From Desulfobacterales bacterium (GTDB lineage: Bacteria > Desulfobacterota > Desulfobacteria > Desulfobacterales > 4572-123), in contig CAXXLK010000002.1 in the NCBI GenBank assembly GCA_963667755.2, positions 928,118-968,117 of the forward strand: a stretch of 40,000 nucleotides of DNA, in the 5' to 3' direction. The notes under the pieces were generated by a model that was not told where the DNA came from, did no database searches, and was given only the letters and a program-made list of their open reading frames with translations. This document shows, piece after piece, positions 3,959 through 40,000 of this stretch (its first letter is position 1; each line of letters opens with the position of its first letter). Both the position numbers and the translations under genes were made by a program.

Positions 3959-3982
3959 ATCCTCCTCCTTTGAATGCGTTAT

Positions 3983-14523: not shown

Positions 14524-14538
14524 ACGTCATCTCCTAAG

Positions 14539-15057: not shown

Positions 15058-15080
15058 GAGTTGTATTCCTCCTGGGGCTT

Positions 15081-18744: not shown

Positions 18745-18797
18745 TGCAGTGGCAATCCACCGCTCTATTGCCCACAGAATTCTCACAGATTGATCCT

Positions 18798-18822
18798 CTC
18801 GTAAAACGTCGGATTTTTACGA
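18798..18822. terminator. Hairpin between the convergent usp and ABC ATPase genes (possible bidirectional terminator)
   Basis: CTCGTAAAA-cgtcgga-TTTTACGAG forms a perfect 9-bp stem. The stem is A/U-rich and there is no clear trailing U-run on either strand. Confidence 0.3.
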
Positions 18823-18834
18823 GATCGTTACAGA

Positions 18835-20499: not shown

Positions 20500-20528
20500 C
20501 GTTAAGTTACCTCACAGAAGCATTGCTG

Positions 20529-21353: not shown

Positions 21354-21366
21354 CGAAGCCTTCTCC

Positions 21367-22329
21367 TTATTTTGATCTTGGATGCAGCAACCTGGGGTTG
21401 CTGAGAATTGACAGTATGTCAGCCAGAAGATTCAGTGAAATATAAACGACGGCAAAAATAAGGCCGCTGGCCTGAACAACGGGGATGTCCCGCTTGGCTA
21501 CCGAGTCCACCAGAAGCTGGCCCAGCCCCGGATAAACAAATACCACCTCAACAATCACGACACCCACCACCAGATAGGCCAGATTAAGGGCAACAACGTT
21601 AATCACCGGTGAAAGGGCGTTTGGAAATGCGTGCACAACAATAACCCGCATCCGTTTCAGCCCCTTTAATCTGGCCATCTCCACATAGGAACTGGCAAGG
21701 ACATTGATGACGGCCGCACGGGTCTGGCGCATCATGTGGGCGGTAACAATAAATGTAAGGGTCAGGCTGGGAAGAATAATGGCATCGATTTTCTGCCAGA
21801 ACGACATCTGCTCGTTGATATTGGAAATACTGGGGAAAATAACCAGTTTCACAGACAGCAGTGCAATGAGAATATAGGCGACGAAGAATTCGGGAAAAGA
21901 GATGGCGCTGAGGGTGGCTGTGGAAATCGCTTTATCAAAGAGGGTGTCGCGATAAAGCGCGGCCAGGAGCCCGAGAATGATGGCAATGGGTATGGATATT
22001 ACCGCCGCCGAGCTGGCTAGAAATATGGTGTTCTCAAATCGCCAGCCGATAAGTTGGGTAATCGGCCGGCCGTTGGCAAGGGAGTTCCCAAAATCTCCCC
22101 TGGCAAAGCTGCCCAGCCAGCTGAAATAACGGACATGGGGGGGAAGGTCTAATTTGAGTTCCTTTCTAAACGCCGCAACGGTTTCAGGCGTTGCCTCCTG
22201 TCCCAGGATCGCTTCCGCCAGATCACCGGGAAGCGCCTCCACGCCAACGAAAATGAGAAGAGAGATGACGATGATCGTCATTAGCCCCAGGGCCATTCGC
22301 TTTGCCACCATTATGATGATGTCATTCAT
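21367..22329 (-). CDS. ABC transporter permease (DppB/OppB-like)
   Basis: I moved the start to the ATG at 22329 (MNDIIIMVAKRMALGLMTIIV...), just downstream of the preceding gene's stop at 22343. It contains the SSYVEMARLKGLK EAA-loop region. Confidence 0.85.
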   Translation of the reverse strand: MNDIIIMVAKRMALGLMTIIVISLLIFVGVEALPGDLAEAILGQEATPETVAAFRKELKLDLPPHVRYFSWLGSFARGDFGNSLANGRPITQLIGWRFENTIFLASSAAVISIPIAIILGLLAALYRDTLFDKAISTATLSAISFPEFFVAYILIALLSVKLVIFPSISNINEQMSFWQKIDAIILPSLTLTFIVTAHMMRQTRAAVINVLASSYVEMARLKGLKRMRVIVVHAFPNALSPVINVVALNLAYLVVGVVIVEVVFVYPGLGQLLVDSVAKRDIPVVQASGLIFAVVYISLNLLADILSILSNPRLLHPRSK

Positions 22330-22342
22330 TTTTTCACCGTTT

Positions 22343-24256: not shown

Positions 24257-24499
24257 GGGGCCTTCATCCGGATTTAGTATGGGTCTAAACAGTTATTTGC
24301 TTGCTGCTGCGCAAAACTCAGCATACACCACTTTCATGTAAAAAAAAGGATAGGGCCTTGACCATCGCTTGGGCCACATTCGCAAAAAGGCTGACGCCTG
24401 AACGCCTACGAAATGAAGGTCTTCGGTCGAAACGATGATCAAAGCCCGGAATCAACAACGTATCAGCACCTTTTGATTTGTCATGAAGAACGCCGAGGT

Positions 24500-26089
24500 T
24501 TATTTGAACCACCATCTTTCAGCGTTGTGTTGCCCATCCGCTTCCATGTGGCCTGAAATGGTGTCGTGGCCGACCTTGTCGGACAGTGCCTCGACGATCT
24601 GGGCGAACATGGGAATGATGGTCCCGCCTTCATCTTTGCAGATCTCCTGCATATCCGCATACATCTGTGCCCGTTTTTTTTCGTCGAGTTCCGCCTTGGC
24701 TTCTACGAGCAGTTTGGTGAATTTTTCATTATCCCAGTGCGCATCGTTCCAGGGTGCGCCGGAGGCATAGGCCACGGAAAACATCATGTCTTCGGTGGGG
24801 CGTCCACTCCAGTAGCACATACAGAACTCTTTCTTTGTCCAGACGTTGCTCCAGTAGCCGTCGGCCGGTTCCCGCACCACATTGACGTTGATGCCTGCTT
24901 TTTTAGCATGCTCCTGAAACAGGATGGCGGCATCGTCGGCACCCGAAAAAGCAGCCTCGGAACTGTGCAGGTTAAATGTGTGGTTTTCCATGCCGGCCTT
25001 TTTCATGTAGAAGCGGGCCTTGTCCGGATCGTAGTGTCGTTGCTTGAGGTTTTTGGCATGATAGCGGTTGATCGGTGCAATGGGGTGATCGTTTCCAACC
25101 TCGCCGTAGCCATTCAGGATTCGTTTCACCATATCATCGCGATTTACGGCATACTTGAGACCCAGACGGACATTATTATCGTCATACGGTTTCATCTTGG
25201 TGTGCATGGGCATGGTGTAGTGGAAGGTAGCGGTCACTGCGCTGATTTCAATGCCCTTTGACCGTTTCAGGAGATGGATGGTTTTCCGTTCACAGCGGTC
25301 CATGAAGTGAATCTGCCCTGTCTTGACGGCGCTGGTTCTGGCATTGACATCGTTGATGGCAAGGGTTTCCACCTTGTCGAAATGAGCCCGACCCGCTTTC
25401 CAGTAGTTTGGGTTTCTTCTGGTGATGGCGGTGACACCCGGTTCCCATTTCTCAAGGATATACCCCCCCGTACCGATCCCTTTTTCAAAGTCCATTCCCT
25501 TTGTGCCGGCCTTGAACACGGATAGATGGTAATCACCCATGATGAACGGAAAATCGGCAAAGCCGGCGTCAAGTTCAAAAATCACGCGATGTTTGCCATC
25601 GGCCTTGATGTTTGTGACCGGTTTCAGATATTCTTTGGCAGCAGACTTAGAGTCTTCTCCCCGATGGTGGTTCATGGTATAGATCACATCTTCTGCATCC
25701 AGAGACTTTCCGTCGTGAAACTCCACGCCCTTGCGCAGGTTGAAGATCCATTTTTTGGCATCCGGCGATGATTCCCAGCTTTCGGCCAGCTCCGGAATGG
25801 GCTGAAGGTTGTGGTCGATCTCCGTCAGGCAGTTTCTCAGTTGCCATTCCACATTGATGTTCCAGCTGGATGTGTGGGTGGCCGGATCCAGTGTGTCGCT
25901 TGTGGATCCGCCGGTCTGCGCCTGTATAAAATGCCCCCCTTTTTTGGGTACTGCCGCCGCTGCCCTGCGCGGCAGTAAGGCCGGGGATATCGCCACTGTC
26001 AACCCTAGGGCCGCCGCCTGGGACAAGAATTGCCTCCTGCTGATTTTGCCTTCCACAAGCAGTTTTTCCAGAAAATTCAATGCGCTCAT
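24500..26089 (-). CDS. ABC transporter substrate-binding protein, family 5 (DppA/OppA-like), Tat signal
   Basis: 529-aa ORF with a twin-arginine leader (SRRQFLSQAAALGLTVAI...AAAA). A family-5 SBP is expected next to Dpp-type permeases. A GAGGAGG RBS is present. Confidence 0.85.
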   Translation of the reverse strand: MSALNFLEKLLVEGKISRRQFLSQAAALGLTVAISPALLPRRAAAAVPKKGGHFIQAQTGGSTSDTLDPATHTSSWNINVEWQLRNCLTEIDHNLQPIPELAESWESSPDAKKWIFNLRKGVEFHDGKSLDAEDVIYTMNHHRGEDSKSAAKEYLKPVTNIKADGKHRVIFELDAGFADFPFIMGDYHLSVFKAGTKGMDFEKGIGTGGYILEKWEPGVTAITRRNPNYWKAGRAHFDKVETLAINDVNARTSAVKTGQIHFMDRCERKTIHLLKRSKGIEISAVTATFHYTMPMHTKMKPYDDNNVRLGLKYAVNRDDMVKRILNGYGEVGNDHPIAPINRYHAKNLKQRHYDPDKARFYMKKAGMENHTFNLHSSEAAFSGADDAAILFQEHAKKAGINVNVVREPADGYWSNVWTKKEFCMCYWSGRPTEDMMFSVAYASGAPWNDAHWDNEKFTKLLVEAKAELDEKKRAQMYADMQEICKDEGGTIIPMFAQIVEALSDKVGHDTISGHMEADGQHNAERWWFK

Positions 26090-26369
26090 TGGTTCCTCCT
26101 CTACTTTTTAGGGGTTACGTTCAATGTGAAATCAACTTGCCGGTTTTTAAAAAAAGCAATTTTGAGTTGTTGATTACTTTTAGCAACATCTGGTTTAAAT
26201 TTATGATTATGGCTCAATTTGTATGCCGCTATAATATTTTGAATTAAGCTAATACTATACAATAATATTGATGGAAAGTATAGGTGTTTTTATTTTATAT
26301 AAAATCAATAGCTTATAGTTGAAGTTGGCTCGCCTGATATCTTCCGGAAGCCCCTGGCCCGCCGGCGCA

Positions 26370-26954
26370 TCATAGGCGACTGTGCAGTCTGGCCAATAGA
26401 TCGGGCAACCATCCTAATGCCAGCTGTTCGAGGGCTTCCCGGGCGGGCCGTCCGGTAGTGGCCTCCCAGCTCCGCTGGCGGTAGAATTCTGCCGCTGCGG
26501 TATCGACTTCCGAGCGGTTCATACGTTTGCCATGGGTGGGTCTACCTTTGAGCGGTGTCGTAAAAATTTTTCTGCAAGTTTGTCCCTATCCCGGCTAAAG
26601 CCTTCCCGATAATTAAAGGCCCGCATCACATTCACCCGGCGGGCACCGACGGTAAGCAGTTCTTCCAGGGTTACGTTCCACCCGGTCACGGACTGAACGA
26701 GCGTGACATAATCGTCAGGCCCGTACAGCTGCCATGAAGCGCCCCAACAAAACGGGCAGACACAGAGGCTGTCGGCCCGGTTGAATATATCCTGGATCTG
26801 AATTGTATGTCCCGGCTTTAGCGACGCCTGCATCACTGATCAGGAAGACGTTCCTGGATTCCGTTAATGCAGAAATTTCATCTCCTATCTGTTCGACGCG
26901 ATCAACCCCGAAGGAGATGTTGCCAACCCCTGGAAAGGTAATTGGAATCATCAC
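26370..26954 (-). pseudogene. Chimeric relic: N-terminus of an iron-type alcohol dehydrogenase joined to the frameshifted C-terminus of an aldehyde:ferredoxin oxidoreductase
   Basis: 26954-26811 encodes MMIPITFPGVGNISFGVDRVEQIGDEISALTESRNVFLISDAGVAKAG, an Fe-ADH N-terminal pattern. From about 26803 a different frame reads IQIQDIFNRADSLCVCPF...VTGWNVTLEELLTVGARRVNVMRAFNYREGFSRDRDKLAEKFL. After a frameshift near 26556-26570, beside an A5T5 run, it reads TPLKGRPTHGKRMNRSEVDTAAAEFYRQRSWEATTGRPAREALEQLAL, with the stop at 26370-26372. This parallels the C-terminus of the intact AOR at 15081-16844. Confidence 0.65.
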
Positions 26955-27230
26955 AATCCTTTCAAAATAAGCAGGCCGGCCTTTGGCGATTATCCATCCA
27001 GAAACGAGAACTTTTGTTCAAAATCAGGGTATGCACAAGTTTTATCAGAAACAAATGATTGATATTCTACAGCTATTCTTTGATGAACGTGCAAAAAGTA
27101 TTTGGGATGGTTAAGTAGAAATCGTCTATATAAGGCATAGGGATTTACCAGGGGCGAAGGCAACCATATGGTATATCGAGTCTCTGGAAAGTCCCTATAA
27201 CGCAGTAGATGGCGACTTTTTACGACGCCA

Positions 27231-28703
27231 TCATTCTTTGATCCCCAGCTCTTTTTCGGCGCCGTCAACAATGTCACGCAGCTGTTTGAGGACAGCCCCT
27301 GAAAGTTTCGGTGGTTCATATGTTTCAAGAATGTGTCGAACCGCTTCGCCGGCCCGCTCGTATGCATCCTTTGAACCGTTTTCTTCCCAGCGGAATCTCA
27401 TCTGCCGGTTCAGCAGCTTCGGGCTTGTGGTCAGCCGCATGTGCTTGAAGGTGGATTCGTGAGCCAGATAATCCTTGAAAGGGCCGACCTCCTTGATGGT
27501 ATCGATGGACAGGGTTTCGTCATTGACCTCAATGCCGTTTACCGTCCGTTTGATCATACCGGCCACTTCGTTATCCAATACCAGTTGTGCCAGATCAAAG
27601 GTGATACCCATTTCCAGCATTCCCAAGCCGTAAATTACGTTGCACCCTGACAACGCAGGCAAGATACCGGTGATGGTTTTTTCATGGCCGGACTGGTAGT
27701 CAACCACTTTGCTGTCGCCCTATCCACCGGCGGCGAAACTGGGCAACCCATAGTAGCGGGCAAGCCGGGCCACCGCCGCATTGATCATGGCCGTCTCAGG
27801 GGCACCCACCGTTGCCGTGGCATACTTCAGGTCCAGAGGGCAGGTGGAACTGGCATAAATGAACGGCGTCCCTTTTTTAACCAGTTGGCCCAGAACAAGA
27901 CTTGCCAGATTTTCGCTGTTTTGCTGTACCAATGTTCCGGCAATGTGGATGGGGGAAGAGCCGCCGGTCATGGCCATGCCGATACAGTTTAACCCAATGC
28001 CGTTTCGGGCCGCTTCGATAATGATGTCACAATGGTGGGACGACAGCTTCAAGGGGCTGATGGGACAGGTCACAAAGGTCAGAAACGGTCTTTCCCTGAA
28101 TTTATCCATATCCCCGGCGATGGCAGCGCACATTTCAAGAATTTTTCCGCACTGATACCGGTCCACCGGACCCAGCCAGTGATGCTTGGTCGTATTGGTG
28201 AGTGATGCCTCGGCATTGTGCAGTGCCTGCACCCTGGGGTCTTTATCATGGGAAAGCATGCAGCGTTCATAGGTTTCCACATGTTCCAGAGAATCGATGA
28301 GCCTGGCGGCCATCTCGATATCGGCCTTGGTGGTTTTACGATGTTCTCCCGTATAAGGATCGACAAACATGATGCCTTCACCAAAATTGGTGAACGTCAC
28401 CCGGTTGGCTTCCAGAACCACATCGCTCTCCGGTATGCGGCCGTAGGCATGAAACGTAGCCGGCGCCGTCCGGATCGACGCTTCCACCAGATAGGGTGGG
28501 AGGGTAACGACTTTTGTTTTTTCATTCACACTGGCGCCGGCAGCACCGAAGATCTGCCTTGCCTCTTCACTTTCCACAAAAACACCGGTGCATTTCAGGA
28601 TTTCAAGGGAACCCAGGTGTATTTCATGCACTTCGTCGTCGGTGAGTGTGTTTAGACTGAAGCCGCCGCTGGATAATTTCCCGGATTTGGTTGGTCGCTT
28701 CAT
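27231..28703 (-). CDS. mttB: Trimethylamine:corrinoid methyltransferase MttB with in-frame UAG (predicted pyrrolysine), copy 1
   Basis: Track ORFs 27720..28703 and 27231..27707 share one frame and are separated only by TAG at 27720-27722. The read-through sequence is ...YYGLPSFAAGG[TAG]GDSKVVDYQSGHEKT... The total of 490 codons is a typical MttB length. An AGGAGG RBS lies 5 nt upstream of the ATG at 28703. Confidence 0.85.
27720..27722 (-). other. In-frame UAG, candidate pyrrolysine codon (mttB copy 1)
   Basis: The plus strand reads cta and the minus strand reads GGT GGA TAG GGC GAC AGC AAA. The position aligns with the TAG of copy 2 and with a Met codon in the non-Pyl paralog at 13048-14523. 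Confidence 0.85.
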
Positions 28704-28725
28704 TTTTTCCTCCTGTAGAAGTCAT

Positions 28726-30120
28726 TTAACTATTTTTTTCGATGGCGTTCTTGACGGCGGTTAGTATTTGGTCCATCTGTTCTTTAGTGGCGACAAGGGC
28801 CGGCGCAAAGAGCATCATGGTGTTCATACCCGGCAGGCTGGAGTTGGTTCTGCCCACCAGCACGCCCTGGGCGGCCACATCCGCCACCAGTTTACCCATA
28901 AACGCTTCGGAAACAGGCGTTCTGGATGCCTTGTCCGTCACGAACTCCACTCCACAGAAAAGACCTTTGCCGCGTACGTCTCCAACAATGGGAAAATCCA
29001 AAAACGCTTTCAGGCCATTGAGCAGATATTCGCCTACCACCCTGCTGTTTTCCACAAGGTTTTCATCATCAATGATACGGGCCGTCTCAAGACCCGCGGC
29101 CATGGCGCCGGTACACCCGCCATAGGTACTGATATCCCGGAAATAATTCAATCGCTTTTCCGGTGTCCCGGTATCGAGGAACAGGTTAAAAATGTCATCG
29201 CTTATGGCGGTAACCGATAACGGTTCATAGCAACTGGCAACGCCCTTGGCCATAGTCACCATGTCCGGCGTTACATCATAATGTTCATGGCCCCAGAATT
29301 TTCCGGTGCGGCCGAACCCGCAGACCACCTCGTCAAAGATCAGGTAGGCCCCGTATTTTTTGCAGATTTGCTGGAGTATGGGATAGTATTCCTGGACGGG
29401 TACCAGGATGCCGCCGCCGGCAACAATGGGTTCCACGATCACCCCCCCCACGGTGTCCGGCCCCTCTTTTAGAATGACATCTTCCAGGGCGCGGGCGCAT
29501 TCGATGTTACAATCCGGATAGGTCTTGCCAAAGGCGCACCGGTAGCAAAGCGGGTGGGGAAACTCGGCAAACCCTTCAGCCATGGGTCCGAAATGCGCTT
29601 TTCGTTCACTCTGTCCCCCGGCACTCAATGCCCCGATGGTGGTACCGTGATAGTCCCGGTCCCGGTAGATCACTTTGAATTTACCTTTACGGTCATCGTT
29701 GATTTTCGCAAGCTGCCGGATGATCTTAAAGGCCTTCTCATTGGCTTCGGAACCGGAATTTGAAAAAAATATTTTCTTTTGATGGGGAAGCTTCTCTGCG
29801 AGTTTTTTAGCAAATTTAATGGCGGGGACTGTGCCGACCGCACCGGCGTAGTAGCACAGTTTTGTCAACTGTTCAGCCACCGCCTCGGCAATACTTCTGC
29901 GACCGTAACCCACCACCACGCCCCACACACCACCGGAGACTGCATCAAGATATTCCCGGCCCCGGATATCTTTTACCACAAGGCCGTTGCCTTCCACGAT
30001 AACCATCTGTTCCTTGTCTGCAAAGACACTATGGTCCTTGAGATGATGCCATAAAAAATCTTTGTCCGCTGCAACCATTTCTTCCACATCGTAATCAAGC
30101 CAGTTTGTTTTCGGATCCAT
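28726..30120 (-). CDS. Class-III (omega) aminotransferase, PLP-dependent
   Basis: 464-aa ORF with FFSNSGSEANEKAFK, LIFDEVVCGFGRTGK and DMVTMAKGV (PLP-lysine region). Its stop lies 22 nt upstream of the mttB copy 1 start. An AAGGAG RBS is present. Confidence 0.85.
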   Translation of the reverse strand: MDPKTNWLDYDVEEMVAADKDFLWHHLKDHSVFADKEQMVIVEGNGLVVKDIRGREYLDAVSGGVWGVVVGYGRRSIAEAVAEQLTKLCYYAGAVGTVPAIKFAKKLAEKLPHQKKIFFSNSGSEANEKAFKIIRQLAKINDDRKGKFKVIYRDRDYHGTTIGALSAGGQSERKAHFGPMAEGFAEFPHPLCYRCAFGKTYPDCNIECARALEDVILKEGPDTVGGVIVEPIVAGGGILVPVQEYYPILQQICKKYGAYLIFDEVVCGFGRTGKFWGHEHYDVTPDMVTMAKGVASCYEPLSVTAISDDIFNLFLDTGTPEKRLNYFRDISTYGGCTGAMAAGLETARIIDDENLVENSRVVGEYLLNGLKAFLDFPIVGDVRGKGLFCGVEFVTDKASRTPVSEAFMGKLVADVAAQGVLVGRTNSSLPGMNTMMLFAPALVATKEQMDQILTAVKNAIEKNS

Positions 30121-30240
30121 ATTTCAATCTCCTTTTCTAATACAAAAATTAGCAGGCAATACGAGAAAAACAGTAGCGCCCATAACTCTTTTTGTTCAGA
30201 CACAGGCGCATATCGCTTACCCCATGCTTACCTGTTGTGA

Positions 30241-31815
30241 TTATTTCGCATCCGGCATGGAAGAGATGGTCCCATCCCAGGTGTCCACGAGGCCGCAGGC
30301 TTCCTGGTCTTCGGGAAACCAGGTGGCGGTGACGCATTTGGATTCGGTAAAGAAACTGATACCATCTTTGCCCATCACATGCAGATCTCCAAAAAAGGAT
30401 TGTTTGTGACCTGTAAAACCGAAAATACCCAGTGGTACCGGGATGCCGACATTGACACCCACCATGCCGGCATCGGTCCGTTTGGAAAATTCCCGCGCGT
30501 AATGGCCGTTCTGGGTATAAATGACCGAACCGTTGGCAAAACGGCTGCTGTTCATCAAGGCCAGTCCTTCCTCAAAATTTTGGACCCGTTTGACGCAGAG
30601 TACCGGGCCAAAGACTTCCTCCCAGCCGATGGTCATTTCCGGTGTCACATGGTCAAAGATGCAGGGCGCCAGATAAAAACCGCCCTCATGACCCGCTACC
30701 TTGGGATTACGGCCGTCCACGATCAGTTCGGCGCCCTCTTCGATTCCTTTTTCGATCCAGTCGGTGATAAACTTCAGATGGCCCGCGTTCAAGATGGGCC
30801 CCATGCCGGTGTCCGGGTCATAGGCAGGGCCAAGGTTCATTTCGGCTACAAATTTTTTCAGCAGCGCAATCAGTTCATCCGCAATGCACGCTTCCACAAC
30901 GATCACCGGGCAGGCCATACACCGGGCACCGGCACAGCCGCAATAGGCATTGATAATACCCCTGGCGGTTCGCTCCAGTTTTGCATCCCGCATGACCAGC
31001 GCATGGTTTTTGGCTTCGGTGAGGGCCTGCACGCGCTTACCGTTGGCAGCGGCGGTGGCATAGATGTGTTTGCCGGTTTTGGTGGATCCCACAAAAGACA
31101 CCCCTGCAATATCGGGATGGCTAAGGAGAATCTCGGCCTCATTACGGCCTGCGGTGACCAGATTGAGGACCCCCTCGGGCAGTCCGGCCTCATGCCAGAG
31201 TTCCAGGAGCCGCATGGACGTCTGGGGCACAAAACTGGCGGCTTTCAGCACCATGGTATTGCCCGTGGCGATACACAGCGGTGCCATCCAGCCATGGGGA
31301 ATCATGGCGGGGAAATTCCAGGGTGCAATACCGGCGAAAACACCGACGGGGTGTCTGTAGAGAACCGTGTCATATCCGGCGGAAGCGTTCATCAGGGATT
31401 CTCCCTTCATCAAATGGGGGGTCCCGCAGGCAAATTCGACCACTTCGTTGACTTTCAGTACATCGCCCATGCTTTCCCGCCAGTTTTTACCTTCTTCCTG
31501 GCACAACAGGTGGGTCAGTTCTTCCAGGTGTTCATCCACCAGCGCTTTCATACGATACAAAACCTGAACCCGTTTACTGACCGGGGTGTCGGCCCAGGCC
31601 GGAAACGCCGCTTTAGCGGAATGAATGGCCGATTCGACCTCTTCGGATGTGCACTGGGGCGCCATGGCGATCACTTCGCCGGTGGACGGATTATAGCAAT
31701 CCATGTATTTTGTTGCTTTTGATTCAAGCCACTGCCCGTTGACGCAGTATTTCAGTTTTTTGACCGAATTTTTTGAAGACGACCCACTCTCCATAAAATA
31801 TCGTGATTTTTGCAA
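30241..31815 (-). CDS. mmsA: CoA-acylating methylmalonate/malonate-semialdehyde dehydrogenase family aldehyde dehydrogenase
   Basis: 524-aa ORF with [32 protein letters not shown], and EAKNH in place of the ELGGK general-base segment, as in MmsA/IolA-type enzymes. The [10 protein letters not shown] catalytic-Cys region is present. The track start at 31815 is a TTG lying 10 nt after AGGAG; the alternative ATG is at 31794. Confidence 0.8.
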   Translation of the reverse strand: [524 protein letters not shown]

Positions 31816-31904
31816 AATGTTATATCTCCTTTATTTTTACGGTTTTTGTTAAATTATTAGTTGATCTATACGGAAGAATGTAAAAAATATTTTTGAATTT
31901 TTTT

Positions 31905-31986
31905 AAGGCTCCTCGCTGTTACATATGGGTAAATTTGACCGACTGCAGTCCCGGGCACCCACACGAAACAGCGAGGAACCTTTTTT
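31905..31986 (+). terminator. Long-stem hairpin followed by T6 (terminator-like structured element in the divergent intergenic region)
   Basis: Arms GGCTCCTCGCTGTT (31907-31920) and AACAGCGAGGAACC (31967-31980) pair at 13 of 14 positions, plus flanking A-T pairs. The 46-nt loop holds GGGT/ACCC and the palindromes GACTGCAGTC and CCCGGG. TTTTTT follows at 31981-31986. Confidence 0.45.
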
Positions 31987-32244
31987 AAAGATACTGTTTT
32001 AGTCATATAGCCTTGATAACTACGATGTCAAGTAAAAATAACCGTCCTTTTTACTTTTTCAGTTTATTATTATTTTATTTTCTACGTTTTAGCTTTTTTT
32101 TGTTTGAATTTTTATAATAATAGTGATAATTGAATTCTATTCTACTCCATAATAGGCATTTCAAACTAAACTGCGCGTCAACTTGAAACATTTCCATGAT
32201 GGGAGAATATCTCCATCTAAGTGTTAAAAAAAAGAGGCATTTTA

Positions 32245-32739
32245 ATGGAAAATCGAAAATTAAAGAAAAAAAACAAAACGCTGGACTTGGTCGATTGTGA
32301 AATTATTAATCTGCTGCAAAAGGACGGTAGGATCTCAAATACCGATATTGCAAAAAAAATGAGTATTTCTGAAGGAACCGTTCGCACCCGCCTGAATCGG
32401 TTGATTAAAAGCGAAATCATTCAGATTGTCGCTGTCAGCAACCCCATCAAACTCGGCTTTAAAATCGTGGGGCAAATCAGGATTCAGATAGATGTCGGCA
32501 AGATGGAGAATATTATAACAAAACTGAAAAAATTAAAAGCCCTATGGTTTATCGTCCAGACCACCGGGGGAACCACCGGTCTTGAAGCCGAATTTAACGT
32601 CAAGTCTCTGGATGAACTCAATACGTTGATTTTTGAAAACATCAACAAGATAGACGGCGTCATCAAAACCGATGTCTCCCTGATAATGGATTTTATCAAG
32701 CGACGATATGACTGGGGTACGGTGATGGATGAAAAATAA
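32245..32739 (+). CDS. Lrp/AsnC-family transcriptional regulator
   Basis: HTH segment DCEIINLLQKDGRISNTDIAKKMSISEGTVRTRLNRL plus a C-terminal RAM-like domain. I prefer the ATG at 32245 (AGAGG 7 nt upstream) over the GTG at 32221 used by the track. Confidence 0.85.
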   Translation: MENRKLKKKNKTLDLVDCEIINLLQKDGRISNTDIAKKMSISEGTVRTRLNRLIKSEIIQIVAVSNPIKLGFKIVGQIRIQIDVGKMENIITKLKKLKALWFIVQTTGGTTGLEAEFNVKSLDELNTLIFENINKIDGVIKTDVSLIMDFIKRRYDWGTVMDEK

Positions 32740-32765
32740 AAAACGCTCTTAAAAAGGAGGAAAGC

Positions 32766-34157
32766 ATGGGAAAAATTAAAACCCGAATGGGCGATGGCTT
32801 CAAGGTCGAGATGACCGAAAGCGAAGTCCGAAAAGCCCTGGAGGAAGGGACTCAGGATGCGGCAGAGCGTGCCCGGGTCGAGCCATTGTCGCCGGATGAT
32901 CTCCAACGGATTTTTGAGATTTTTACCTGTCCTTATCGAATCGTTGGCGTTGATGAGGGCAATGAGGTGGTTCTTACCTACGACAGTCTTAACACCAAAA
33001 TCAAACGGGCACAGATTTCAGCCAGCAAGATCCAGTCCCTTCAGATTTGTGAAAGGGCCCTGGGGGCAGACACCCTGGAGCTTGCCCATATCGACTACAG
33101 TTATAAACCGGTAAAACCGATCATTCCCTTTGAAAAACCGATAATGGAGCAGGCCGTCCTGATCACAATCCCGGCATTGCTCTATGGCGCCATGCCTAAC
33201 CTGGGGCTCTACAGCCAGCCGGACGGCCCATGTCCTAATCCGGCGGATCTTCTTCCCAATGGAAAAATCGCTGAAGCCAGGGCATCCTATGAAGAGGCTG
33301 CCGAATACGCCATAGCGGATATGGTTTACGTGGGTAGCGAGATGTATGAATCCGGCGCCGACGGCATCAATTTTGATACCACGGCTGCAGCCGGGGATGC
33401 GGAATTTTATGCAACTCTCAAAGCGGTGGAGATTCTCAGAAAAAAATATCCCGCCATGGGCATCCAGATGGGTATGGCCGCGGAATTCGTATTGGGAATG
33501 CACGGAGAGATTGAATATAACGGTGTCCGTCTGGCCGGGCTCTACCCTCACCAGCAAGTCAAACTCGCCGAAGAAGCCGGGGTAAACATTTTTGGACCGG
33601 CCGTCAATATCGTCACCAATGAATCGTTGCCCTGGAACATTGCCCGTTCCGTTACCTGGACCAAAGCCTGCACGGATGTTGCAAAGATTCCGGTACACGC
33701 ATGCCTGGGAATGGGTGTCGGCGGTGTCCCCCTGGCGCTTACACCGCCCATAGATGCCCTTTCACGGGCATCAAAGGCCCATGTAGAGATCTGCAGGCTG
33801 GACGGGTTGTAGGTGGGTGTCGGAGACCCGTGCGGGATGCACGCTGCACATGCAATAGTATCGGGACTGGGTGGCATACGCACTGCCGGAGATCTGGTAG
33901 CACGAATGCAACTAAATGGCTCGATGAAAATTGATGCAGCAAAAAAACATGTCGCGGATAAGTTGAAAATTTCTGTCGCGGATATTGCGGACCCGGTGGT
34001 GATGAACGAACTCCGGGAAGATCTGGATATCGGCCGCGTCAATGAGGCCCCCGGTGTGGCCAAGGGTATTGATGCGAAGTTTAGGATTGCCAGGCTTCTG
34101 GACATTAACATCAACTCGGTGAACATATTCAAGGAGAAAATAGAACGCGACATATGA
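32766..34157 (+). CDS. mtbB: Dimethylamine:corrinoid methyltransferase MtbB with in-frame UAG (predicted pyrrolysine)
   Basis: Track ORFs 32766..33812 and 33813..34157 are contiguous in one frame and separated only by TAG at 33810-33812: ...SKAHVEICRLDGL[TAG]VGVGDPCGMHAAHAIVSGLGGIRTAGDLVARMQ... It is colinear, as far as I recall, with Methanosarcina MtbB (HIDYSxKPVKP, LxYGAMPNxGLY, ASGADGxNFDTTxAAGD, LAGLxPHQQ, DGx-Pyl-xGVGDPxGM, GDLVARM). The TAG is codon 349 of 463. An AAGGAGG RBS is present. Confidence 0.85.
33810..33812 (+). other. In-frame UAG, candidate pyrrolysine codon (mtbB)
   Basis: GAC GGG TTG TAG GTG GGT GTC GGA. Conserved MtbB sequence runs on both sides in the same frame. Confidence 0.85.
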
Positions 34158-34302
34158 TTTTACATCACGGGGCGTTCCTGTATTGGACCTGAAAATTGTT
34201 TAAATGCCCCCGGCTTCTCGAAGACCGGAAGCCGCGGAAAAAATGTCCGGCGGTTACCCCAAACCAAAGATCGGAGAGTTGTCTTTTAAAAGGAGATGGA
34301 CG

Positions 34303-34955
34303 ATGACGATAATTGAAGTACGCTTTGAAGAAGCCAAAAAGCCATGGTAGCGTGTGACGCTGAAAATGCCTCGCTGGTGGCGACACAGGGTTTAGCAGAT
34401 GGGATTGACCCTGTTGAATTTTTGAACAAGGGATTCATTCCCGGAATAAATGAGGTCGGAGGGCTTTTCGGTAAAGGCCGGTTGTTTCTTCCCGAATTGA
34501 GTATCGCCGCAGAAGCCATGCGACAGGTAACCGATATTATTAATGGTGCACTTGGAGCCGCCGGAACGATTTCAAAAAAGGCAGGGAAAATTCTCATGGC
34601 CACTGTTCAGGGTGATGTTCATGATATCGGTAAAACCATTGTGGTGTCACTTTTCAAAGCCAACGGATTTGAGGTGCTGGATTTGGGGCGAGATATTTCC
34701 AACGAAAAAATTATTGAAGAAGCTGTGCGGTTTGAAGCCGATATTATCGGTACCAGGGCGCTTCTCACCACTACTATGCCCGCCCAATAAAAACTTGAAA
34801 AAGAACTGAAGAAAGCCGGCCTGAAGGGAAAAATCAAGACAATTGTTGGTGGGGCGCCCGTAACACAGAGATGGGCCCAGCGCATCGGCGCAGATGCTTA
34901 CGCCCGGGGCGCATCTGATGGTGTTCAGAAAGCAAAGCTGATGATAGGGCTATGA
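34303..34955 (+). pseudogene. Corrinoid (B12-binding) protein gene downstream of mtbB, apparently inactivated (MtbC-like)
   Basis: Cap and B12 domains are recognisable (GDVHDIGKT = DxHxxG; ALLTTT; IVGGAPV). There are three lesions. (1) The RBS-proximal start, ATG at 34303 (MTIIEVRFEEAKK), is out of frame with the body starting at 34344, consistent with loss of one A in the A5 run at 34336-34340. (2) An in-frame TAA at 34788-34790 aligns with a Lys of the paralog at 35143-35772. (3) The SxL Ser is replaced by Arg (GTRALL). The conserved C-terminus KLEKELKKAGLKGKIKTIVGGAPVTQRWAQRIGADAYA continues in frame to the TGA at 34953-34955. Confidence 0.7.
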
Positions 34956-34998
34956 ATTAGAATGGTCTGGCTCCTGCCCTGGTTGAATTATGGTTTAA

Positions 34999-35043
34999 CC
35001 CTGCAACGTAATCTTGTTATATCCGCAAGGTAATGTTGCAGGG
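34999..35043 (+). other. Extended hairpin downstream of the plus-strand mtbB/corrinoid unit
   Basis: CCCTGCAAC (34999-35007) pairs with GTTGCAGGG (35035-35043), with an inner CTTG/CAAG helix and symmetric GTAAT internal loops. There is no U-run, so a terminator role is uncertain. Confidence 0.3.
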
Positions 35044-35051
35044 GTGATGCC

Positions 35052-35112
35052 GGAAAAAAATAGCCCGGTTCCTCAGGGACTGCATGAATGCAGTATACTT
35101 TGGGACCGGGCT
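35052..35112 (-). terminator. Rho-independent terminator candidate for the mttB-mttC unit
   Basis: On the minus strand, AGCCCGGTCC (35112-35103) pairs with GGAACCGGGCT (35072-35062): a 10-bp stem with one bulge and an inner ACTGCAT/ATGCAGT helix. It is followed by ATTTTTTTCC (35061-35052) and starts 31 nt after the mttC stop. Confidence 0.6.
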
Positions 35113-35142
35113 AAAAATCAAACTTTTAAAACAGGCTGAATA

Positions 35143-35772
35143 CTATACCAGAGATTTGGCCAGCTTGGTGGCTGAACCGGCATCTGCGGCATATCCGTCG
35201 GCACCGATTTCATCGGCATATTTCTGGTTTACCGGGGCACCGCCGATGATGACCTTGACCTTGTCGCGGTATCCGGCTTCAACCAGAGCGTCGATGGTTG
35301 TTTTCATCATACCCATGGTAGTGGTGAGCAGGGCAGAGATGGCAACTATGGTGGCGCCCTGGTCTTTTACGGCGGCCACAAAAGTTTCCGGGGCTACGTC
35401 AACACCCAGGTTGATCACCTCAAAACCGGCGCTTTCCAGCATCATGGCCACCAGGTTTTTACCGATGTCATGCAGGTCGCCCTTGGCCGTACCCATGGCA
35501 ACTTTGCCGGCGGCTTTGGCATCTTCTACGGACAGCAGGGGTTTAAGTATTTCCACTGCTGCGGCCATGGCCTTGGCGGCCATGAGCACTTCGGGGATAA
35601 ACATATCGCCGTTCTGCATTTTTTCGCCGACAATATCCATGCCTTTGATCAATCCGTCATTGAGAATATCTTTTGCTTCCATTCCCTCGTTCACGGCGGC
35701 TTGCACAAGCGTTTTCAATGTTGCTGCATCGCCGGCTATCAGTGTGTTCGAAAGTGCGTTTAAATCTGCCAT
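35143..35772 (-). CDS. mttC: Methylamine-type corrinoid protein (MttC-like, B12-binding)
   Basis: 209-aa ORF with a helical cap domain plus GDLHDIGKN (DxHxxG), SALLTTT (SxL) and IIGGAPV (GG). It lies 48 nt downstream of mttB copy 2 and has an AAGGAG RBS. It terminates in TAG (35143-35145). The symbol is assigned by context only. Confidence 0.8.
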   Translation of the reverse strand: MADLNALSNTLIAGDAATLKTLVQAAVNEGMEAKDILNDGLIKGMDIVGEKMQNGDMFIPEVLMAAKAMAAAVEILKPLLSVEDAKAAGKVAMGTAKGDLHDIGKNLVAMMLESAGFEVINLGVDVAPETFVAAVKDQGATIVAISALLTTTMGMMKTTIDALVEAGYRDKVKVIIGGAPVNQKYADEIGADGYAADAGSATKLAKSLV

Positions 35773-35820
35773 TGTCTTTGTCTCCTTTGTTTCTAGTTGA
35801 TAAAAAGTTCTGTTACCGGG

Positions 35821-37314
35821 TTATTTCTGGGAAACCGTGGCCCGTTTTTCTTTTGCTTGGGCCTCGGCATTTTCAAATATTGTGTTTAACTGGGCCTGAA
35901 TGTTTTCAGGCAATGCTTCTACCTTGTGGCTGGCGATGATGTGGGCTGCCCTGGCATAGGCTTTTTCCACAACATCCTTTGATCCATCTGCAATCCAGCC
36001 GTCACGGCTTTTTCTGTCAAAAAGGTCTCCCTGGGACTGCCGCCGCATATTTTTAAAGGTATGCGGATGGGTGATGAATTCACCGCCGTGGCCCACCTCT
36101 TTGATGACGTCAAAAGCAATGGCTTCATCGGTAATGGTAAATCCTTCGACTGCCTTCATGATCATTCTCAGCATTTCATTGTGTAAAACCGCCTGGGCGT
36201 AATCCCAGGTCAAACCGCTGTCAAGCATCCCGAGGCCGTAAATCAGGTTGGCACCTGCCAACGCCGTTAAAGTGGCCGTTAAGGTATATTCATGGGCTGC
36301 CTGCGCATCGGGCATTTTGCTGTCCACCTATCCACCGGCGACCCAGGAGGGGAGCCGGTAAAACTTGGCCAATTTGGCGATGGCAGCGCTGAACATCCCC
36401 ATTTCCGGAGTCCCCATGGCCGCCAGTCCGGTTTTAAGGTCCATGATGCTGGTGGAACTGCCGTATACCATGTGATGGCCCTTGCGGACAGCCTGTCCCA
36501 GGACAATCATGCTTAAATTTTCAGCATTATGGGTGACAAGACTGCTGGCCAGGTTGATGCAGGTGGTGCCACCCGCCAGTCCAAGGGGGTTGATTTTCAG
36601 GGGGACGCCCAGTCGACAGGCTTCAATCAGAACGTCGCAGGCATCTTTTGAATGCAGCAACGGGCTGATGGGATCACAGGTTGTGGAGAAAATCGGTCTT
36701 TCACGGAATTTGTCATCACCGCCGGCCACAACGGAGGCCATCTTAAAACAGGTCCTCAGATTTTCAACCGAGTTGATGCCGATATAGCCATGTTTGGTGC
36801 AGGAATTCAAAAAACTTTTAATGTTGTAAAGACAGCAGATATCCTGGTCCATATCGCAGGGGGTTAACGGTCTTTCAAACACAACGACCTGGTCCAGTGC
36901 ATCCAGAAATAACGTGGCGTCATCAACGTCAGCTTTTGTGGGGGTTCTTAATTTTCTGGTTTTGGGGTCGATCATCATGGGGGCTTCGCCAAAATTGACA
37001 AATCCCGACCGACCGTTTTCACAGACATAATCCTTTTCAGGATCACGGGCGCAAGCCTTAAAAGTGGAAGGGCAGGACCTGATGGCATCTTCAACCAGAT
37101 GGGCTGGAATTTTGACTATTTTGGTTCTATTATTGACAATACAACCAATTCCGTCAAAAATTTCAAGGGCCTGGGAGCTTTCCACTTTGACTCCCATTTC
37201 CCAGAGAATTTCCAGAGTAGCCAGATGAATTTTTTCCAATTCGTCATCGGAAAACATGTTCAGACCGATACCACTGGTCAGAACGGTTCCCGGCTGCAAA
37301 TTTCTTACCGCCAT
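35821..37314 (-). CDS. mttB: Trimethylamine:corrinoid methyltransferase MttB with in-frame UAG (predicted pyrrolysine), copy 2
   Basis: Track ORFs 36328..37314 and 35821..36327 are contiguous in one frame and separated only by TAG at 36328-36330: ...FYRLPSWVAGG[TAG]VDSKMPDAQAAHEYT... The gene is 497 codons and colinear with copy 1 throughout. Confidence 0.85.
36328..36330 (-). other. In-frame UAG, candidate pyrrolysine codon (mttB copy 2)
   Basis: The minus strand reads GGT GGA TAG GTG GAC AGC AAA. This is the same GG-TAG-xDSK context as copy 1. Confidence 0.85.
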
Positions 37315-37714
37315 AATTGGTTTCCTTCATTTTCATAGAAAGACGATAAAATTTCGGTTTTTTACCGGAGGCTGCCTATATATGGTATGTTTTTTCCGGT
37401 AATGAAAGACTCTCCTTGTGCGTTGCAACAGCTTTTAATTATAGATATTTTTTTGTTGAATCCCTCCTTAATTTATTAAATAAAAATTCAAAATAATGTA
37501 CCATTTGATCGCCTATAAACCCTTAAGGGCGCGGTATAATGACTCTGGGTCAAAAAGTCAATCATAATCATCACAAAAGGGTGTATTTTTATGATTCAGT
37601 GTACAAAAATACCCCCTTGATGGCATCGGCCGCCTGCATCAGTTCAGGTAAAAAGAGCTGGCTCCTGCCAAAAAGATCGCTTATTTAGTGTCCCTATCGG
37701 GGATGGTTGAAACC

Positions 37715-37732
37715 CTTCGCCTTTAGGCGAAG
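37715..37732 (+). repeat. Hairpin upstream of the IS200-like tnpA start (candidate left-end subterminal hairpin)
   Basis: CTTCGCC-ttta-GGCGAAG forms a perfect 7-bp stem 21 nt upstream of the ATG at 37753. Confidence 0.4.
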
Positions 37733-37752
37733 AAAAATATATAATTGTCGCT

Positions 37753-37878
37753 ATGCAACTTTACAAACTTGGAGCCCATACAAAAACTGATCTCAAAGCA
37801 CATGTGATTTGGATACCCAAATACCGTAAAAAAGTATTGACGGGAGAGGTAGCCATCCGAACCAGAGACATATTGCGG
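37753..37878 (+). pseudogene. IS200/IS605-family Y1 transposase (TnpA), N-terminal fragment
   Basis: MQLYKLGAHTKTDLKAHVIWIPKYRKKVLTGEVAIRTRDILR matches the HxxxxLxxHIVxxPKYRRKVLxGEV pattern. The HUH (DHVHLL) segment that should follow is missing. Confidence 0.65.
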
Positions 37879-38582
37879 TATGTACTCATGGATAGCTGGT
37901 TTACCAAGCCAGCGAACATTTGCGCACTGAGAGAACACCTGGACGTGATTGGCATGCTCAGCAAGACGCCCAAGGTTTTTGCTATGAGCACGACGGAAGA
38001 AAACGGAACTTGATGGAGATCTACCAAAATCTTACCAAGCGCCGAGGGCGAGCCAAAATACTGGCATCTACCACCGTAACACTTAGCGACGGTAAAATGG
38101 CCAAAATCGTTTTTGTCCGGGATCGCCGCAAAAAGGACTGGTTGGCGTTATTGTCCACCGATACCGGCCTGGCCGATGCCGAGGTGGTTCGTATTTACGG
38201 AAAGCGCTGGGACATTGAGGTCTTGTTCAAAATGACCAAACAGCATCTGAAACTCGTCAAGGAGATCCAATGCCGGGATTTCGATATGCTGATAGCACAC
38301 ACGACCATTGTATTTATGCGATACATGTTCATCGCCTACAGGGTGCGCGTGGAGTCGGATCACCGTATCTTTGGTGATTTGTTTTATGCATGTTGCCAAG
38401 AACTTGATGATATCGGTTTTGTTGAAGCTTTTGACAGAATAATGACTTTGGCCGTTGAACAATTACGGCAGATGGGAACGTTCTGTGAAAGAACAGCTAT
38501 GGCCTTTTTCGATAATGTGATGGCCACAGCTTTGAAGTACGTCATTTTGTCAAAGAACAGAGTGATCACTGTCAATTGTTAA
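37879..38582 (+). pseudogene. IS4-family DDE transposase, 3' fragment with a frameshift
   Basis: It begins at YVLMDSWF (second catalytic-D region) with no upstream N-terminal domain. There is a frameshift in the T5 run at 37976-37980; adding one T joins KVF to CYEHDGRK. The YREK signature YGKRWDIEVLFKMTK is present, and the stop is at 38580-38582. Confidence 0.6.
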
Positions 38583-38595
38583 AGTCGAAAGTTGA

Positions 38596-38862
38596 GTTTA
38601 TATCATATCGACCGACCCAAAATATAATCAAGATTATATGCAGTGGCTAAAAGGGATAAGCTCCCGAATATTATTATCGGAATTTGCCCACTTACGAAAA
38701 CAATTTTGGGGTCGACATTTAGGGTCTCGCAGTTATCTTGCCGTAAACTCAGATAATATTACTGATGATGCCGTTCAAAAGTATATTGAAGCGCAAGAGG
38801 GTGAACCCGTTGTCGATAACAATCGATTTAAATCGACACCTCTTAAACCCCTCGTCTTGTAG
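38596..38862 (+). pseudogene. IS200/IS605-family TnpA, C-terminal fragment
   Basis: VYIISTDPKYNQDYMQWLKGISSRILLSEFAHLRKQFWGRHLGSRSYLAVNSDNITDDAVQKYIEAQ matches the PPKxSxSxxxxxLKGxSS...FWxxxY pattern of IS200 TnpA. Confidence 0.65.
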
Positions 38863-38870
38863 ACGAGGGG
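38848..38870 (+). repeat. Hairpin spanning the tnpA stop codon (candidate right-end hairpin)
   Basis: CCCCTCGTCT-tgt-AGACGAGGGG forms a perfect 10-bp stem. Confidence 0.5.
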
Positions 38871-38942
38871 TATTTAGTTAATTCGGGCTTCGGCTTTTGT
38901 GAACCCACCGATTTTACCTAGCCCCAACGTTGAATTAAATAT

Positions 38943-40000
38943 TTATATCTTTTTCAATCCAGCTTCCATAATCTCAAAGGCCCGGCCCAGCTGTTCATCG
39001 GTGATGACAAAAGGCGCCAATACCCGGATCACATTGCCATAAATGCCGCAGGAGAGAATCACCAGACCCAAATCCAGACAATGGGCACAGAGCGCTTTAG
39101 CCTTGTCCGGTGCTGGAGATCCATCCGGGTTAACAAGGGTGATACCGGCCATGGCACCCACTCCGCGAACCTCTCCCACTTTATCAAACTGATCCTTCCA
39201 CCTCCCGAATCGGGTCTGGAGTTTCTGGCCCAGAACCACCGATTTTTCTAATATATTTTCTTGTTCAAAGATATCAAGAACGGCCAGAGCTGCGGCACAG
39301 GCTAGGGGATTACCACTGTACGTCCCCCCAAGTCCTGCCGGATGCACACTGTCCATGATCTCTTTTCTGCCCACCACGGCACTTAAGGGCATGCCGGCGG
39401 CAAGACTTTTAGCGACCGTCACCAGATCCGGTTCCACACCCCAGTGTTCCATGGCAAACATTCTCCCTGTGCGGCCCATGCCGCTCTGGATCTCATCGGC
39501 CACAAACAAAATGCCATGTTGTTTGCAAAGGGCTGACACCTTTTTAAAATAGCCGTCAGGGGGCGCAATGAAACCGCCTTCTCCCTGGACCGGTTCCGCC
39601 ACGATTGCAGCCACCTCAGAAGGATCCACGCCGGTAATCAAGAGCTTTTTCAGCGCTTCAATGTCTCCAAAGGGTGCCCGGTAAATCTCGGGGGCAAAGG
39701 GGCCAAATCCCTTTTTATAAGGCAGTACCTTGGCGGTCATGGTCATGGTGAGAAGGGTTCGGCCATGGTAGGCGTTGTCAAATACAATAATACCCGGTCG
39801 TTTCGTGTAATAGCGTGCCACCTTTACCGCATTTTCAACGGCCTCTGCACCACTGTTGAGAAACAACACCTTTTTATCAAAATTTCCCGGGGTGAGTTTG
39901 GATAATCTATAGGCCAGAGTTACAGCGGACGCATAGGGGTGCACCATAAAGCAGGTGTGGGTGAACGCCGCTGCCTGATCTTGAATGGCCTTGACTACTT
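38943..40000 (-). CDS. Class-III aminotransferase, 4-aminobutyrate aminotransferase-like (5' end outside the window)
   Basis: The frame stays open upstream of the track's ATG at 39947 (VVKAIQDQAAAFTHTCFMVHPY...), so the gene extends past 40000. Motifs seen: NSGAEAVENAVKVAR, FVADEIQSGMGRTG and DLVTVAKSLAAGMPLSA (PLP-Lys). Confidence 0.8.
   Translation of the reverse strand, partial: VVKAIQDQAAAFTHTCFMVHPYASAVTLAYRLSKLTPGNFDKKVLFLNSGAEAVENAVKVARYYTKRPGIIVFDNAYHGRTLLTMTMTAKVLPYKKGFGPFAPEIYRAPFGDIEALKKLLITGVDPSEVAAIVAEPVQGEGGFIAPPDGYFKKVSALCKQHGILFVADEIQSGMGRTGRMFAMEHWGVEPDLVTVAKSLAAGMPLSAVVGRKEIMDSVHPAGLGGTYSGNPLACAAALAVLDIFEQENILEKSVVLGQKLQTRFGRWKDQFDKVGEVRGVGAMAGITLVNPDGSPAPDKAKALCAHCLDLGLVILSCGIYGNVIRVLAPFVITDEQLGRAFEIMEAGLKKI

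Follow-up and report, generated by a model that had tools for sequence, protein, structure and literature searches.

Pyrrolysine (Pyl)-dependent trimethylamine (mttB) and dimethylamine (mtbB) methyltransferase genes of Deltaproteobacteria have been known since 2007 and 2021 (PMC1976440, PMC8318568). Marine Desulfobacterales with Pyl carry up to five mttB copies and a Pyl-type mtbB, and methyl transfer to tetrahydrofolate (THF) and the Wood-Ljungdahl pathway has been proposed for them (PMC8318568); that literature already describes genomes with more than one copy and a second methyltransferase that has yet to be identified (PMC1976440, PMC8318568). Here we analysed a stretch of 40,000 nucleotides from an uncultured Desulfobacterales bacterium (GenBank assembly GCA_963667755.2, contig CAXXLK010000002.1, positions 928,118 to 968,117 of the forward strand; hereafter the window), in which positions 27231-37314 carry a block of such methyltransferase genes. 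In Methanosarcina, dispersed copies of methylamine methyltransferase genes are as a rule served by one pyl cluster. Our analysis suggests that the block is a satellite (client) locus for the anaerobic demethylation of trimethylamine (TMA) and dimethylamine (DMA), served in trans by a pyl island elsewhere, and we put the probability of this reading at about 0.8.

The "Deltaproteobacteria-bbl" marine Desulfobacterales (Kivenson, Paul & Valentine 2021, PMC8318568) and the Olavius algarvensis delta-1 symbiont (PMC1976440) resemble this locus in their bacterial order, in having several Pyl-type mttB genes together with Pyl-type mtbB and a cognate corrinoid protein nearby, and in the proposed methyl transfer to THF and the Wood-Ljungdahl pathway with the second methyltransferase unassigned. 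Unlike in those genomes, however, pyl, ramA and a candidate second methyltransferase gene are missing here from 51.8 kb of a sister genome, one corrinoid-protein gene is dead, and mttB1 stands in an operon with an aminotransferase and a dehydrogenase of the methylmalonate/malonate-semialdehyde dehydrogenase (MMSDH) type. The GC content is ~50% here and 41% in the bbl genomes. The mttCB/mtbCB operons of Methanosarcina share the catalytic Gly110, Pyl334 and Tyr364 and are likewise dispersed pairs, needing a pylTSBCD cluster, RamA and a shared second methyltransferase in trans (MttB/MttC: PMC9842639). In contrast to them, the present locus is bacterial, THF presumably takes the place of coenzyme M as its methyl acceptor, mtmB was not seen, and the block includes an AsnC regulator and amine-catabolic genes.

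The open reading frame (ORF) listing and translation gave eight genes in the block, the mtbC pseudogene counted, arranged in three units. The sequence-only reading, made before the present analysis, had set the same limits to the block, and these proved exact, running from the 3′ end of mttB1 to the start of mttB2. The features of the block are as follows.

27231-28703, minus strand: mttB1, putative Pyl-type trimethylamine:corrinoid methyltransferase; 490 codons, in-frame TAG at 27720-27722 (codon 328)
27623-27722, minus strand: Rfam PYLIS_3 match from the mttB1 TAG; 60.4 bits (gathering score 38), full model 1-100
28726-30120, minus strand: class-III (omega-type) aminotransferase; 464 aa, Pfam Aminotran_3 1e-87
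30241-31815, minus strand: CoA-acylating MMSDH-family aldehyde dehydrogenase; TIGR01722 536.5 bits (cut-off 448.5), Pfam Aldedh 2e-139
31816-32220, no strand: divergent intergenic region of 405 bp between MMSDH-aminotransferase-mttB1 and asnC-mtbB, from gene geometry
32221-32739, plus strand: AsnC/Lrp-family transcriptional regulator, 27 bp upstream of mtbB; Pfam HTH_24, HTH_AsnC-type, AsnC_trans_reg
32766-34157, plus strand: mtbB, putative Pyl-type dimethylamine:corrinoid methyltransferase; 463 codons, in-frame TAG at 33810-33812 (codon 349)
33810-33909, plus strand: Rfam PYLIS_2 match from the mtbB TAG; 68.3 bits (gathering score 36), full model
34303-34955, plus strand: mtbC pseudogene (corrinoid protein) with frameshift and TAA; the repaired translation matches B12-binding and B12-binding_2
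35143-35772, minus strand: mttC-like corrinoid protein, intact, 209 aa, downstream of mttB2; Pfam B12-binding_2, B12-binding
35821-37314, minus strand: mttB2, putative Pyl-type trimethylamine methyltransferase; 497 codons, in-frame TAG at 36328-36330 (codon 329)
36231-36330, minus strand: Rfam PYLIS_3 match from the mttB2 TAG; 80.1 bits (gathering score 38), full model

The first unit (minus strand) begins with the MMSDH gene, followed by the aminotransferase gene and mttB1 with gaps of 120 and 22 bp; the second (plus strand) is asnC-mtbB-(mtbC pseudogene), and the third (minus strand) is mttB2-mttC. The 405-bp divergent region is presumed to be the shared control region of the MMSDH-aminotransferase-mttB1 and asnC-mtbB units. 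A scan of the block with promoter and terminator consensus sequences gave counts no better than those of shuffled sequence. The adjacency of asnC and mtbB is kept in loci L001-L005 of the genomes compared. All 10 kb had been described as a methylamine block with a regulator. The regulator is present (the AsnC/Lrp gene) together with the methyltransferase and corrinoid-protein genes, but ~3 kb of the block is made up of the aminotransferase and aldehyde dehydrogenase genes.

Our analysis showed a single in-frame TAG in each of mttB1, mtbB and mttB2. In profile matches made with X at the TAG codon, MttB1 and MttB2 reached 669.3 and 620.4 bits against TIGR02369, the NCBIfam equivalog for Pyl-type trimethylamine methyltransferase (cut-off 525; profile positions 1-469), and MtbB reached 512.4 bits against TIGR02368, that for the Pyl-type dimethylamine enzyme (cut-off 369.1), in an end-to-end match. 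All three are thus above the equivalog cut-off, in agreement with the earlier proposal of three Pyl-dependent, UAG-containing methyltransferase genes. The TAG of both mttB genes aligned to Pyl334 of the M. barkeri MttB structure (PDB 7XCL/7XCM). Gly110 and Tyr364 have been reported as invariant in MttB, of which pyrrolysine is the catalytic residue (PMC9842639), and both of them (the G in FGxG and the Y in IYG) were kept in MttB1 and MttB2, while Met249 was kept in MttB1 and replaced by Leu in MttB2. The two proteins share 43% identity and are, as far as sequence tells, old paralogues; MttB1 matched M. barkeri MttB with 368 bits and MttB2 with 322 bits. The combined profile, TAG and PYLIS matches of the three genes far exceed chance. 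The PYLIS matches may reflect coding conservation rather than a required RNA structure. On these matches, mttB1 and mttB2 are predicted to be Pyl-dependent trimethylamine methyltransferase genes, and mtbB a Pyl-dependent dimethylamine methyltransferase gene.

The genes needed to decode UAG and to complete the pathway were searched for in the window and in a sister genome, whose contig (ENA ERZ21831104:ctg97548c, 6,107,701 bp; locus L001) is collinear with window positions 1-37597 at 99.7% nucleotide identity. Each negative search was paired with a positive control. ARAGORN found no tRNA in the 40 kb window, and the same tool detected tRNA-Pyl genes in 12 related loci. Ten of these sequences were used to build a covariance model, which gave a best window score of 9 bits with the filters off, whereas two held-out pylT genes scored 87 and 95 bits. 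No tRNA-Pyl gene was found in L001, L040 (another locus of the sister genome), L042 or L004 (a close relative). The lack of pylT in the window, as first claimed, is therefore upheld by both methods.

Pfam and NCBIfam scans of 31 ORFs tiling most of the window found no PylS, PylB, PylC, PylD or MtmB domain, and no RACo/RamA, URO-D, MtrH, pterin-binding or S-methyl_trans domain. By tblastn, PylSc, PylSn, PylB, PylC and PylD of two divergent types matched neither the window nor same-species loci at E<=1e-4, while control loci were matched. The RamA of L036 matched L017, L033 and L044 but nothing in the window or same-species loci, and three URO-D proteins matched the controls L010, L017 and L033 but again nothing in the window or same-species loci. 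For MtmB (PF05369), an M. barkeri MtmB query found no tblastn match in the window or in any Desulfobacterota locus, and the same query matched L033 of Sporomusa ovata with 57% identity over 457 aa (E 1e-175). This was the sole mtmB found; no Desulfobacterota locus had one within 10 kb of mtbB, and the lack of mtmB appears to be lineage-wide among the loci seen. A PylSn-like tblastn match at 26805-26936 (E 0.001) was rejected, having 30% identity over 44 residues and no PylSn motif; by eye this segment is nearer to the N-terminus of an iron-type alcohol dehydrogenase, and no Pfam match was found there. The statement that the window is without pylSBCD, mtmB, a RamA-type activase and a methylcorrinoid:THF or coenzyme M methyltransferase was thus confirmed by the domain scans and tblastn alike. 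In the sister genome, positions 5,469,322-5,521,111 (51.8 kb), which span the equivalent of the window together with 6 kb on the far side of its start and 8 kb past mttB2, carry none of the pyl, mtmB, RamA-type or second-methyltransferase genes; a canonical set of these genes immediately outside the window, which would have made the arrangement a standard split one, was not found there.

The segments downstream of the TAG are under purifying selection. Compared with the orthologues in L004, L005 and L002, which likewise have no pyl genes nearby, dN/dS downstream of the TAG was 0.05-0.16 and similar to that of the upstream segments (mttB1, 0.05-0.15 against L004 and L002; mtbB, 0.06-0.12). The Pyl-codon TAG was retained in 12 of 12 orthologue comparisons, with no extra stop or frameshift in any orthologue, and the mtbB TAG (codon 349) had an aligned TAG in each of the seven orthologues compared. 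When the window is set against the sister strain, mttB1, mtbB, mttC and mttB2 together have 12 codon differences, all 12 synonymous and none non-synonymous, whereas all five differences between the dead mtbC genes of the window and L001 change an amino acid. The substitution spectrum between window and sister is that of ordinary, transition-rich strain divergence and gave no sign of an artefact. Purifying selection after the TAG, together with conservation of the TAG, therefore indicates that read-through operates in this lineage, and read-through under selection requires a decoding system. Judged from these comparisons, the UAG genes are alive and not relics, and their downstream parts are predicted to be translated.

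Where relatives keep their pyl genes was examined in the 32 loci given by an MtbB scan of species-representative genomes and in further loci, among them L036, L043 and L044. L011 has the order mtbB-pylSc-mtbC-pylB-pylC-pylD-pylT-pylSn, with all genes above NCBIfam cut-offs. L013, L015 and L023 carry the same type of module, with pylB undetected in L013 and L015 and with L015 ending at pylD. L043 is arranged as mttB-mttC-mtbB-mtbC-URO-D-pylSc-B-C-D and L036 as RamA-mtbB-pylSc; the RamA-type genes of L036 and L044 have Fer2 and RACo domains. In L044, a pyl/mttB cluster lies beside CODH/ACS, a RamA-like gene and an S-methyl_trans (PF02574) gene (5902-6789). URO-D-family genes stand beside pyl in L014 (15293-16297), L041 (13593-14672), L043 (4680-5681) and L039 (240-1325), and the second methyltransferase of these relatives is probably a URO-D-family protein. 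Two pyl lineages, ~50% identical to each other, coexist in Desulfobacterales. The compact modules (L011, L013, L015, L023 and L043, and those of the Firmicutes Desulfitobacterium hafniense and Acetohalobium arabaticum) have MtbB, MttB and corrinoid proteins homologous to those of the window, with the TAG at the same codon; MtbB identity to the window is 73-77% in L011, L013 and L015 and 60-62% in L023 and L043. However, these modules interleave pylSc, pylBCD, pylT and pylSn with mtbB and mtbC, often together with URO-D or RamA, whereas in the window only the methyltransferase genes are present.

The complete Desulfobacterales chromosome CP070746.1 (6.97 Mb) combines both situations. The orthologue of the window mtbB lies at 1.87-1.89 Mb (L012) with no pyl genes within 10 kb of it, and a second mtbB lies with pylT-pylSc-B-C-D-Sn-URO-D at 4.33-4.35 Mb, ~2.4 Mb away. 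The split arrangement is thus demonstrated in a complete relative. The sequence-only reading had offered that the missing genes lie elsewhere or that the methyl groups are routed in an undescribed way. The first is favoured by the selection on the genes, by the modules of the relatives and by the split in CP070746.1, and the local incompleteness is ordinary and not evidence of a new pathway. Some pyl-module genes of other organisms have decayed: L010 has a C-terminal pylB remnant (3815-4045) beside a second mtbB, and L036 has a fragmented pylB (10879-11634) and an mtbC of 79 aa. This indicates that loss or relocation of the pyl module occurs in the group.

In the proposed mechanism, MttB1, MttB2 and MtbB would be made full length, the single UAG of each being read as pyrrolysine. 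Each would methylate a Co(I) corrinoid protein, of which MttC is the only intact one here, and a second methyltransferase would pass the methyl group to THF, from which it would enter the Wood-Ljungdahl pathway. PylT, pylSc and pylSn, pylBCD, the RamA-type reductive activase and the second methyltransferase would be encoded elsewhere on the chromosome, most likely in a pyl island that adjoins a paralogous mtbB, the arrangement seen in related genomes. We infer the existence and location of this pyl island in the species, as well as THF as the methyl acceptor and control by AsnC. A methylamine block can thus sit far from its own pyl genes, and local absence of these should not lead annotators or binning-based surveys to conclude that the function is lost or the pathway new. 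Sulfate reducers that use Pyl enzymes on TMA and DMA are competitors of methanogens for substrates formerly regarded as non-competitive, and for this reason knowing the genes of a working system matters for reading sediment metagenomes.

Several observations weigh against the reading as a satellite locus. Neither the sister contig (6,107,701 bp) nor the source contig (2,577,672 bp) yielded pyl genes in partial protein searches, which covered the best 120 cluster representatives each for a Desulfobacterota PylSc query and a type-2 PylB profile, together with the member lists of 20 clusters, and did not extend to type-2 PylSc; such searches of the species are far from exhaustive and are not evidence of absence. 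Ordinary TAG stops end 7 of the 52 genes counted in the species, so that TAG is not avoided. The lack of mtmB in the Desulfobacterota loci leaves the fate of monomethylamine unaccounted for. The locus itself shows decay and rearrangement, namely the mtbC pseudogene, insertion sequence (IS) elements at the edge, a fragment of an aldehyde:ferredoxin oxidoreductase (AOR) gene and a 13.8-kb insertion or deletion relative to L004. A PylS profile (D. hafniense and M. mazei) gave only Firmicutes and archaea among its best 120 matches, and four promising matches (P0219, P0169, P0429 and P0286) belonged to other organisms. The TAG stops include that of mttC (35143-35145), read-through of which would add 41 residues, and those at 2684 and 5789. 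TAG avoidance was dropped as a proxy for Pyl decoding, as 7 of 52 genes ending in TAG is uninformative.

Such signs of decay would fit a relic locus, in which the species has lost its Pyl machinery, the UAG genes give truncated products and the block is decaying. The mtbC pseudogene is common to two strains, IS elements and gene fragments flank the block, the partial searches of the sister and source contigs found no pyl genes, and decay of pyl is seen in relatives (the pylB remnant of L010; the fragmented pylB and 79-aa mtbC of L036). We nonetheless consider a relic very unlikely, given the post-TAG dN/dS of 0.05-0.16 against L004, L005 and L002, the orthologues free of extra stops and frameshifts, and the strain-level contrast between four intact genes with 12 synonymous and 0 non-synonymous codon differences and a pseudogene with only amino-acid-changing ones. 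From these data, any loss of Pyl would have to be extremely recent. The clear selection after the TAG, taken with the failure of the partial searches to find pyl genes in the species, would also be compatible with Pyl-independent read-through, in which another suppressor or near-cognate reading gives full-length proteins without pyrrolysine; nothing else speaks for it. It is hardly credible, since the window has no tRNA of any kind, pyrrolysine is catalytic in MttB (PMC9842639), and pyl genes are present in every examined related lineage that has these genes and enough flanking DNA.

Two corrinoid-protein genes had been counted in the block. The one at 35143-35772 is indeed intact, but that at 34303-34955 is a pseudogene: the A-run at 34336-34340 has lost one nucleotide, and a CAA codon at 34788-34790 has become TAA. 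Both lesions are common to the sister genome, and alignment showed the gene to be intact (217 aa) in L002, L003 and L004. With mtbC dead, MtbB has no dedicated corrinoid partner in this strain. MttC is the sole product of an intact corrinoid gene of the block; it carries the DxHxxG motif as GDLHDIGK, and its TIGR02370 score of 199.2 bits is just under the cut-off of 215.3. At L040 (2,247,527-2,268,156), the sister genome has a second corrinoid gene, >90% identical to mttC, whose neighbours are an octopine-dehydrogenase-like gene, a non-Pyl MttB gene (487 aa), a GntR regulator and a TRAP transporter; no pyl genes were found at this locus (~2.25 Mb) beside the paralogue. In the close relative L004 (HOU_bin.0076, CALNYM010000011.1), a five-gene Liv-type ABC transporter (12335-17657) separates mtbC from mttC. 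Its genes encode one periplasmic binding protein together with two ATPases and two permeases; the transporter is missing from the window, L001 and L003, and may be an amine uptake system.

The aminotransferase of the first unit scored 479.7 against NCBIfam PRK07678, just under the cut-off of 488, and its closest PDB entries are transaminases of the omega, 4-aminobutyrate (GABA) and beta-alanine-pyruvate types. Class-III aminotransferases of various subfamilies, 23-68% identical to that of the window, adjoin mttB or mtbB in L019 (68% identity), L024, L027, L031, L039 and L020. In L002, mttB1 is found at another place; L005 lacks mttB1 and carries another aminotransferase.

The presence of these genes raises a non-canonical routing, in which the Pyl methyltransferases demethylate a tertiary or secondary N-methyl compound to a primary amine that is consumed by the co-operonic aminotransferase and aldehyde dehydrogenase. 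The amine could be a beta-alanine-type product or monomethylamine, and MtmB would be unnecessary, with the Pyl machinery still acting in trans. The one-strand order MMSDH-aminotransferase-mttB1 with gaps of 120 and 22 bp, and the divergent control region in common with asnC-mtbB, are consistent with it, as are the recurrence of class-III aminotransferases beside mttB/mtbB in several lineages, the lack of an mtmB less than 10 kb from mtbB in all Desulfobacterota loci, and the presence in the window of a non-Pyl MttB and a partial GABA-type aminotransferase; the 43% identity of MttB1 and MttB2 would fit different substrates. However, both MttBs exceed the trusted cut-off of the trimethylamine equivalog, with Gly110, Pyl334 and Tyr364 all retained, and it is MttB1, beside the aminotransferase, that is the more canonical copy (368 versus 322 bits to the M. 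barkeri enzyme). Moreover, an aminotransferase with an MMSDH is a common, self-sufficient pair for beta-alanine catabolism, and adjacency is weak evidence in a rearrangement-prone island, as the different arrangements in L002 and L005 show. We regard this routing as unlikely. A related proposal, which we find a little harder still to credit, is that the lineage is without MtmB and that the leftover primary amine is removed by the aminotransferase and the CoA-acylating dehydrogenase, which are co-operonic with mttB1 and have a control region in common with mtbB. Monomethylamine may then be transaminated, or diverged MttB/MtbB paralogues may act on N-methylated omega-amino compounds, the skeleton of which is then burnt. 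If true, this would be an undescribed route linking pyrrolysine enzymes to amino-group catabolism.

Outside the block, the window has a fourth MttB-superfamily gene, which has no TAG. This gene and the edge of the block are as follows.

13048-14523, minus strand: MttB-superfamily gene without TAG; Pfam MTTB 1e-119, TIGR02369 308 bits (under the 525 cut-off)
37598-38900, no strand: block edge with IS elements; synteny with the sister ends at 37597 (blastn against L001)

The gene at 13048-14523 adjoins ferredoxin and AOR genes and belongs to the non-Pyl MttB group; from its sequence, the product is presumably a quaternary-amine methyltransferase. Non-Pyl MttB systems (MtgB/MtgC/MtgA of D. hafniense; MtpB, MtcB and MtyB of Eubacterium limosum) share with the block the logic of a substrate methyltransferase, a corrinoid protein and a corrinoid:THF methyltransferase. 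Unlike them, mttB1, mttB2 and mtbB carry the Pyl codon and score as trimethylamine and dimethylamine equivalogs.

The locus is a plastic catabolic island. At its edge, an IS200-type tnpA (Y1_Tnp) is split into an N-terminal part (37753-38013) and a C-terminal part (38638-38862) by an IS4-like DDE transposase fragment (DDE_Tnp_1, 37920-38582). Past the IS elements, a GABA-type aminotransferase ORF (38943-39947) is ~70-95 N-terminal residues short of the family profiles. On the other side, window positions 13009-26815 (13.8 kb) are missing from the close relative L004. This segment carries the non-Pyl MttB, ferredoxin and AOR genes, a HIBADH-like dehydrogenase, Usp, a Dpp/Opp-type ABC transporter, an acetyl-CoA hydrolase-GNAT fusion and an SBP_bac_5 family-5 solute-binding protein. 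The junction at 26100-27230 contains gene debris, including a C-terminal fragment of AOR (26519-26836). Further upstream, a gene at 3983-5653 (minus strand) encodes a 556-aa protein with no Pfam or NCBIfam match that is conserved across an 8-member cluster; it is flanked by the genes of an acyl-CoA dehydrogenase and of an FGGY kinase, and ETF and FAD-linked oxidase genes belong to the same run.

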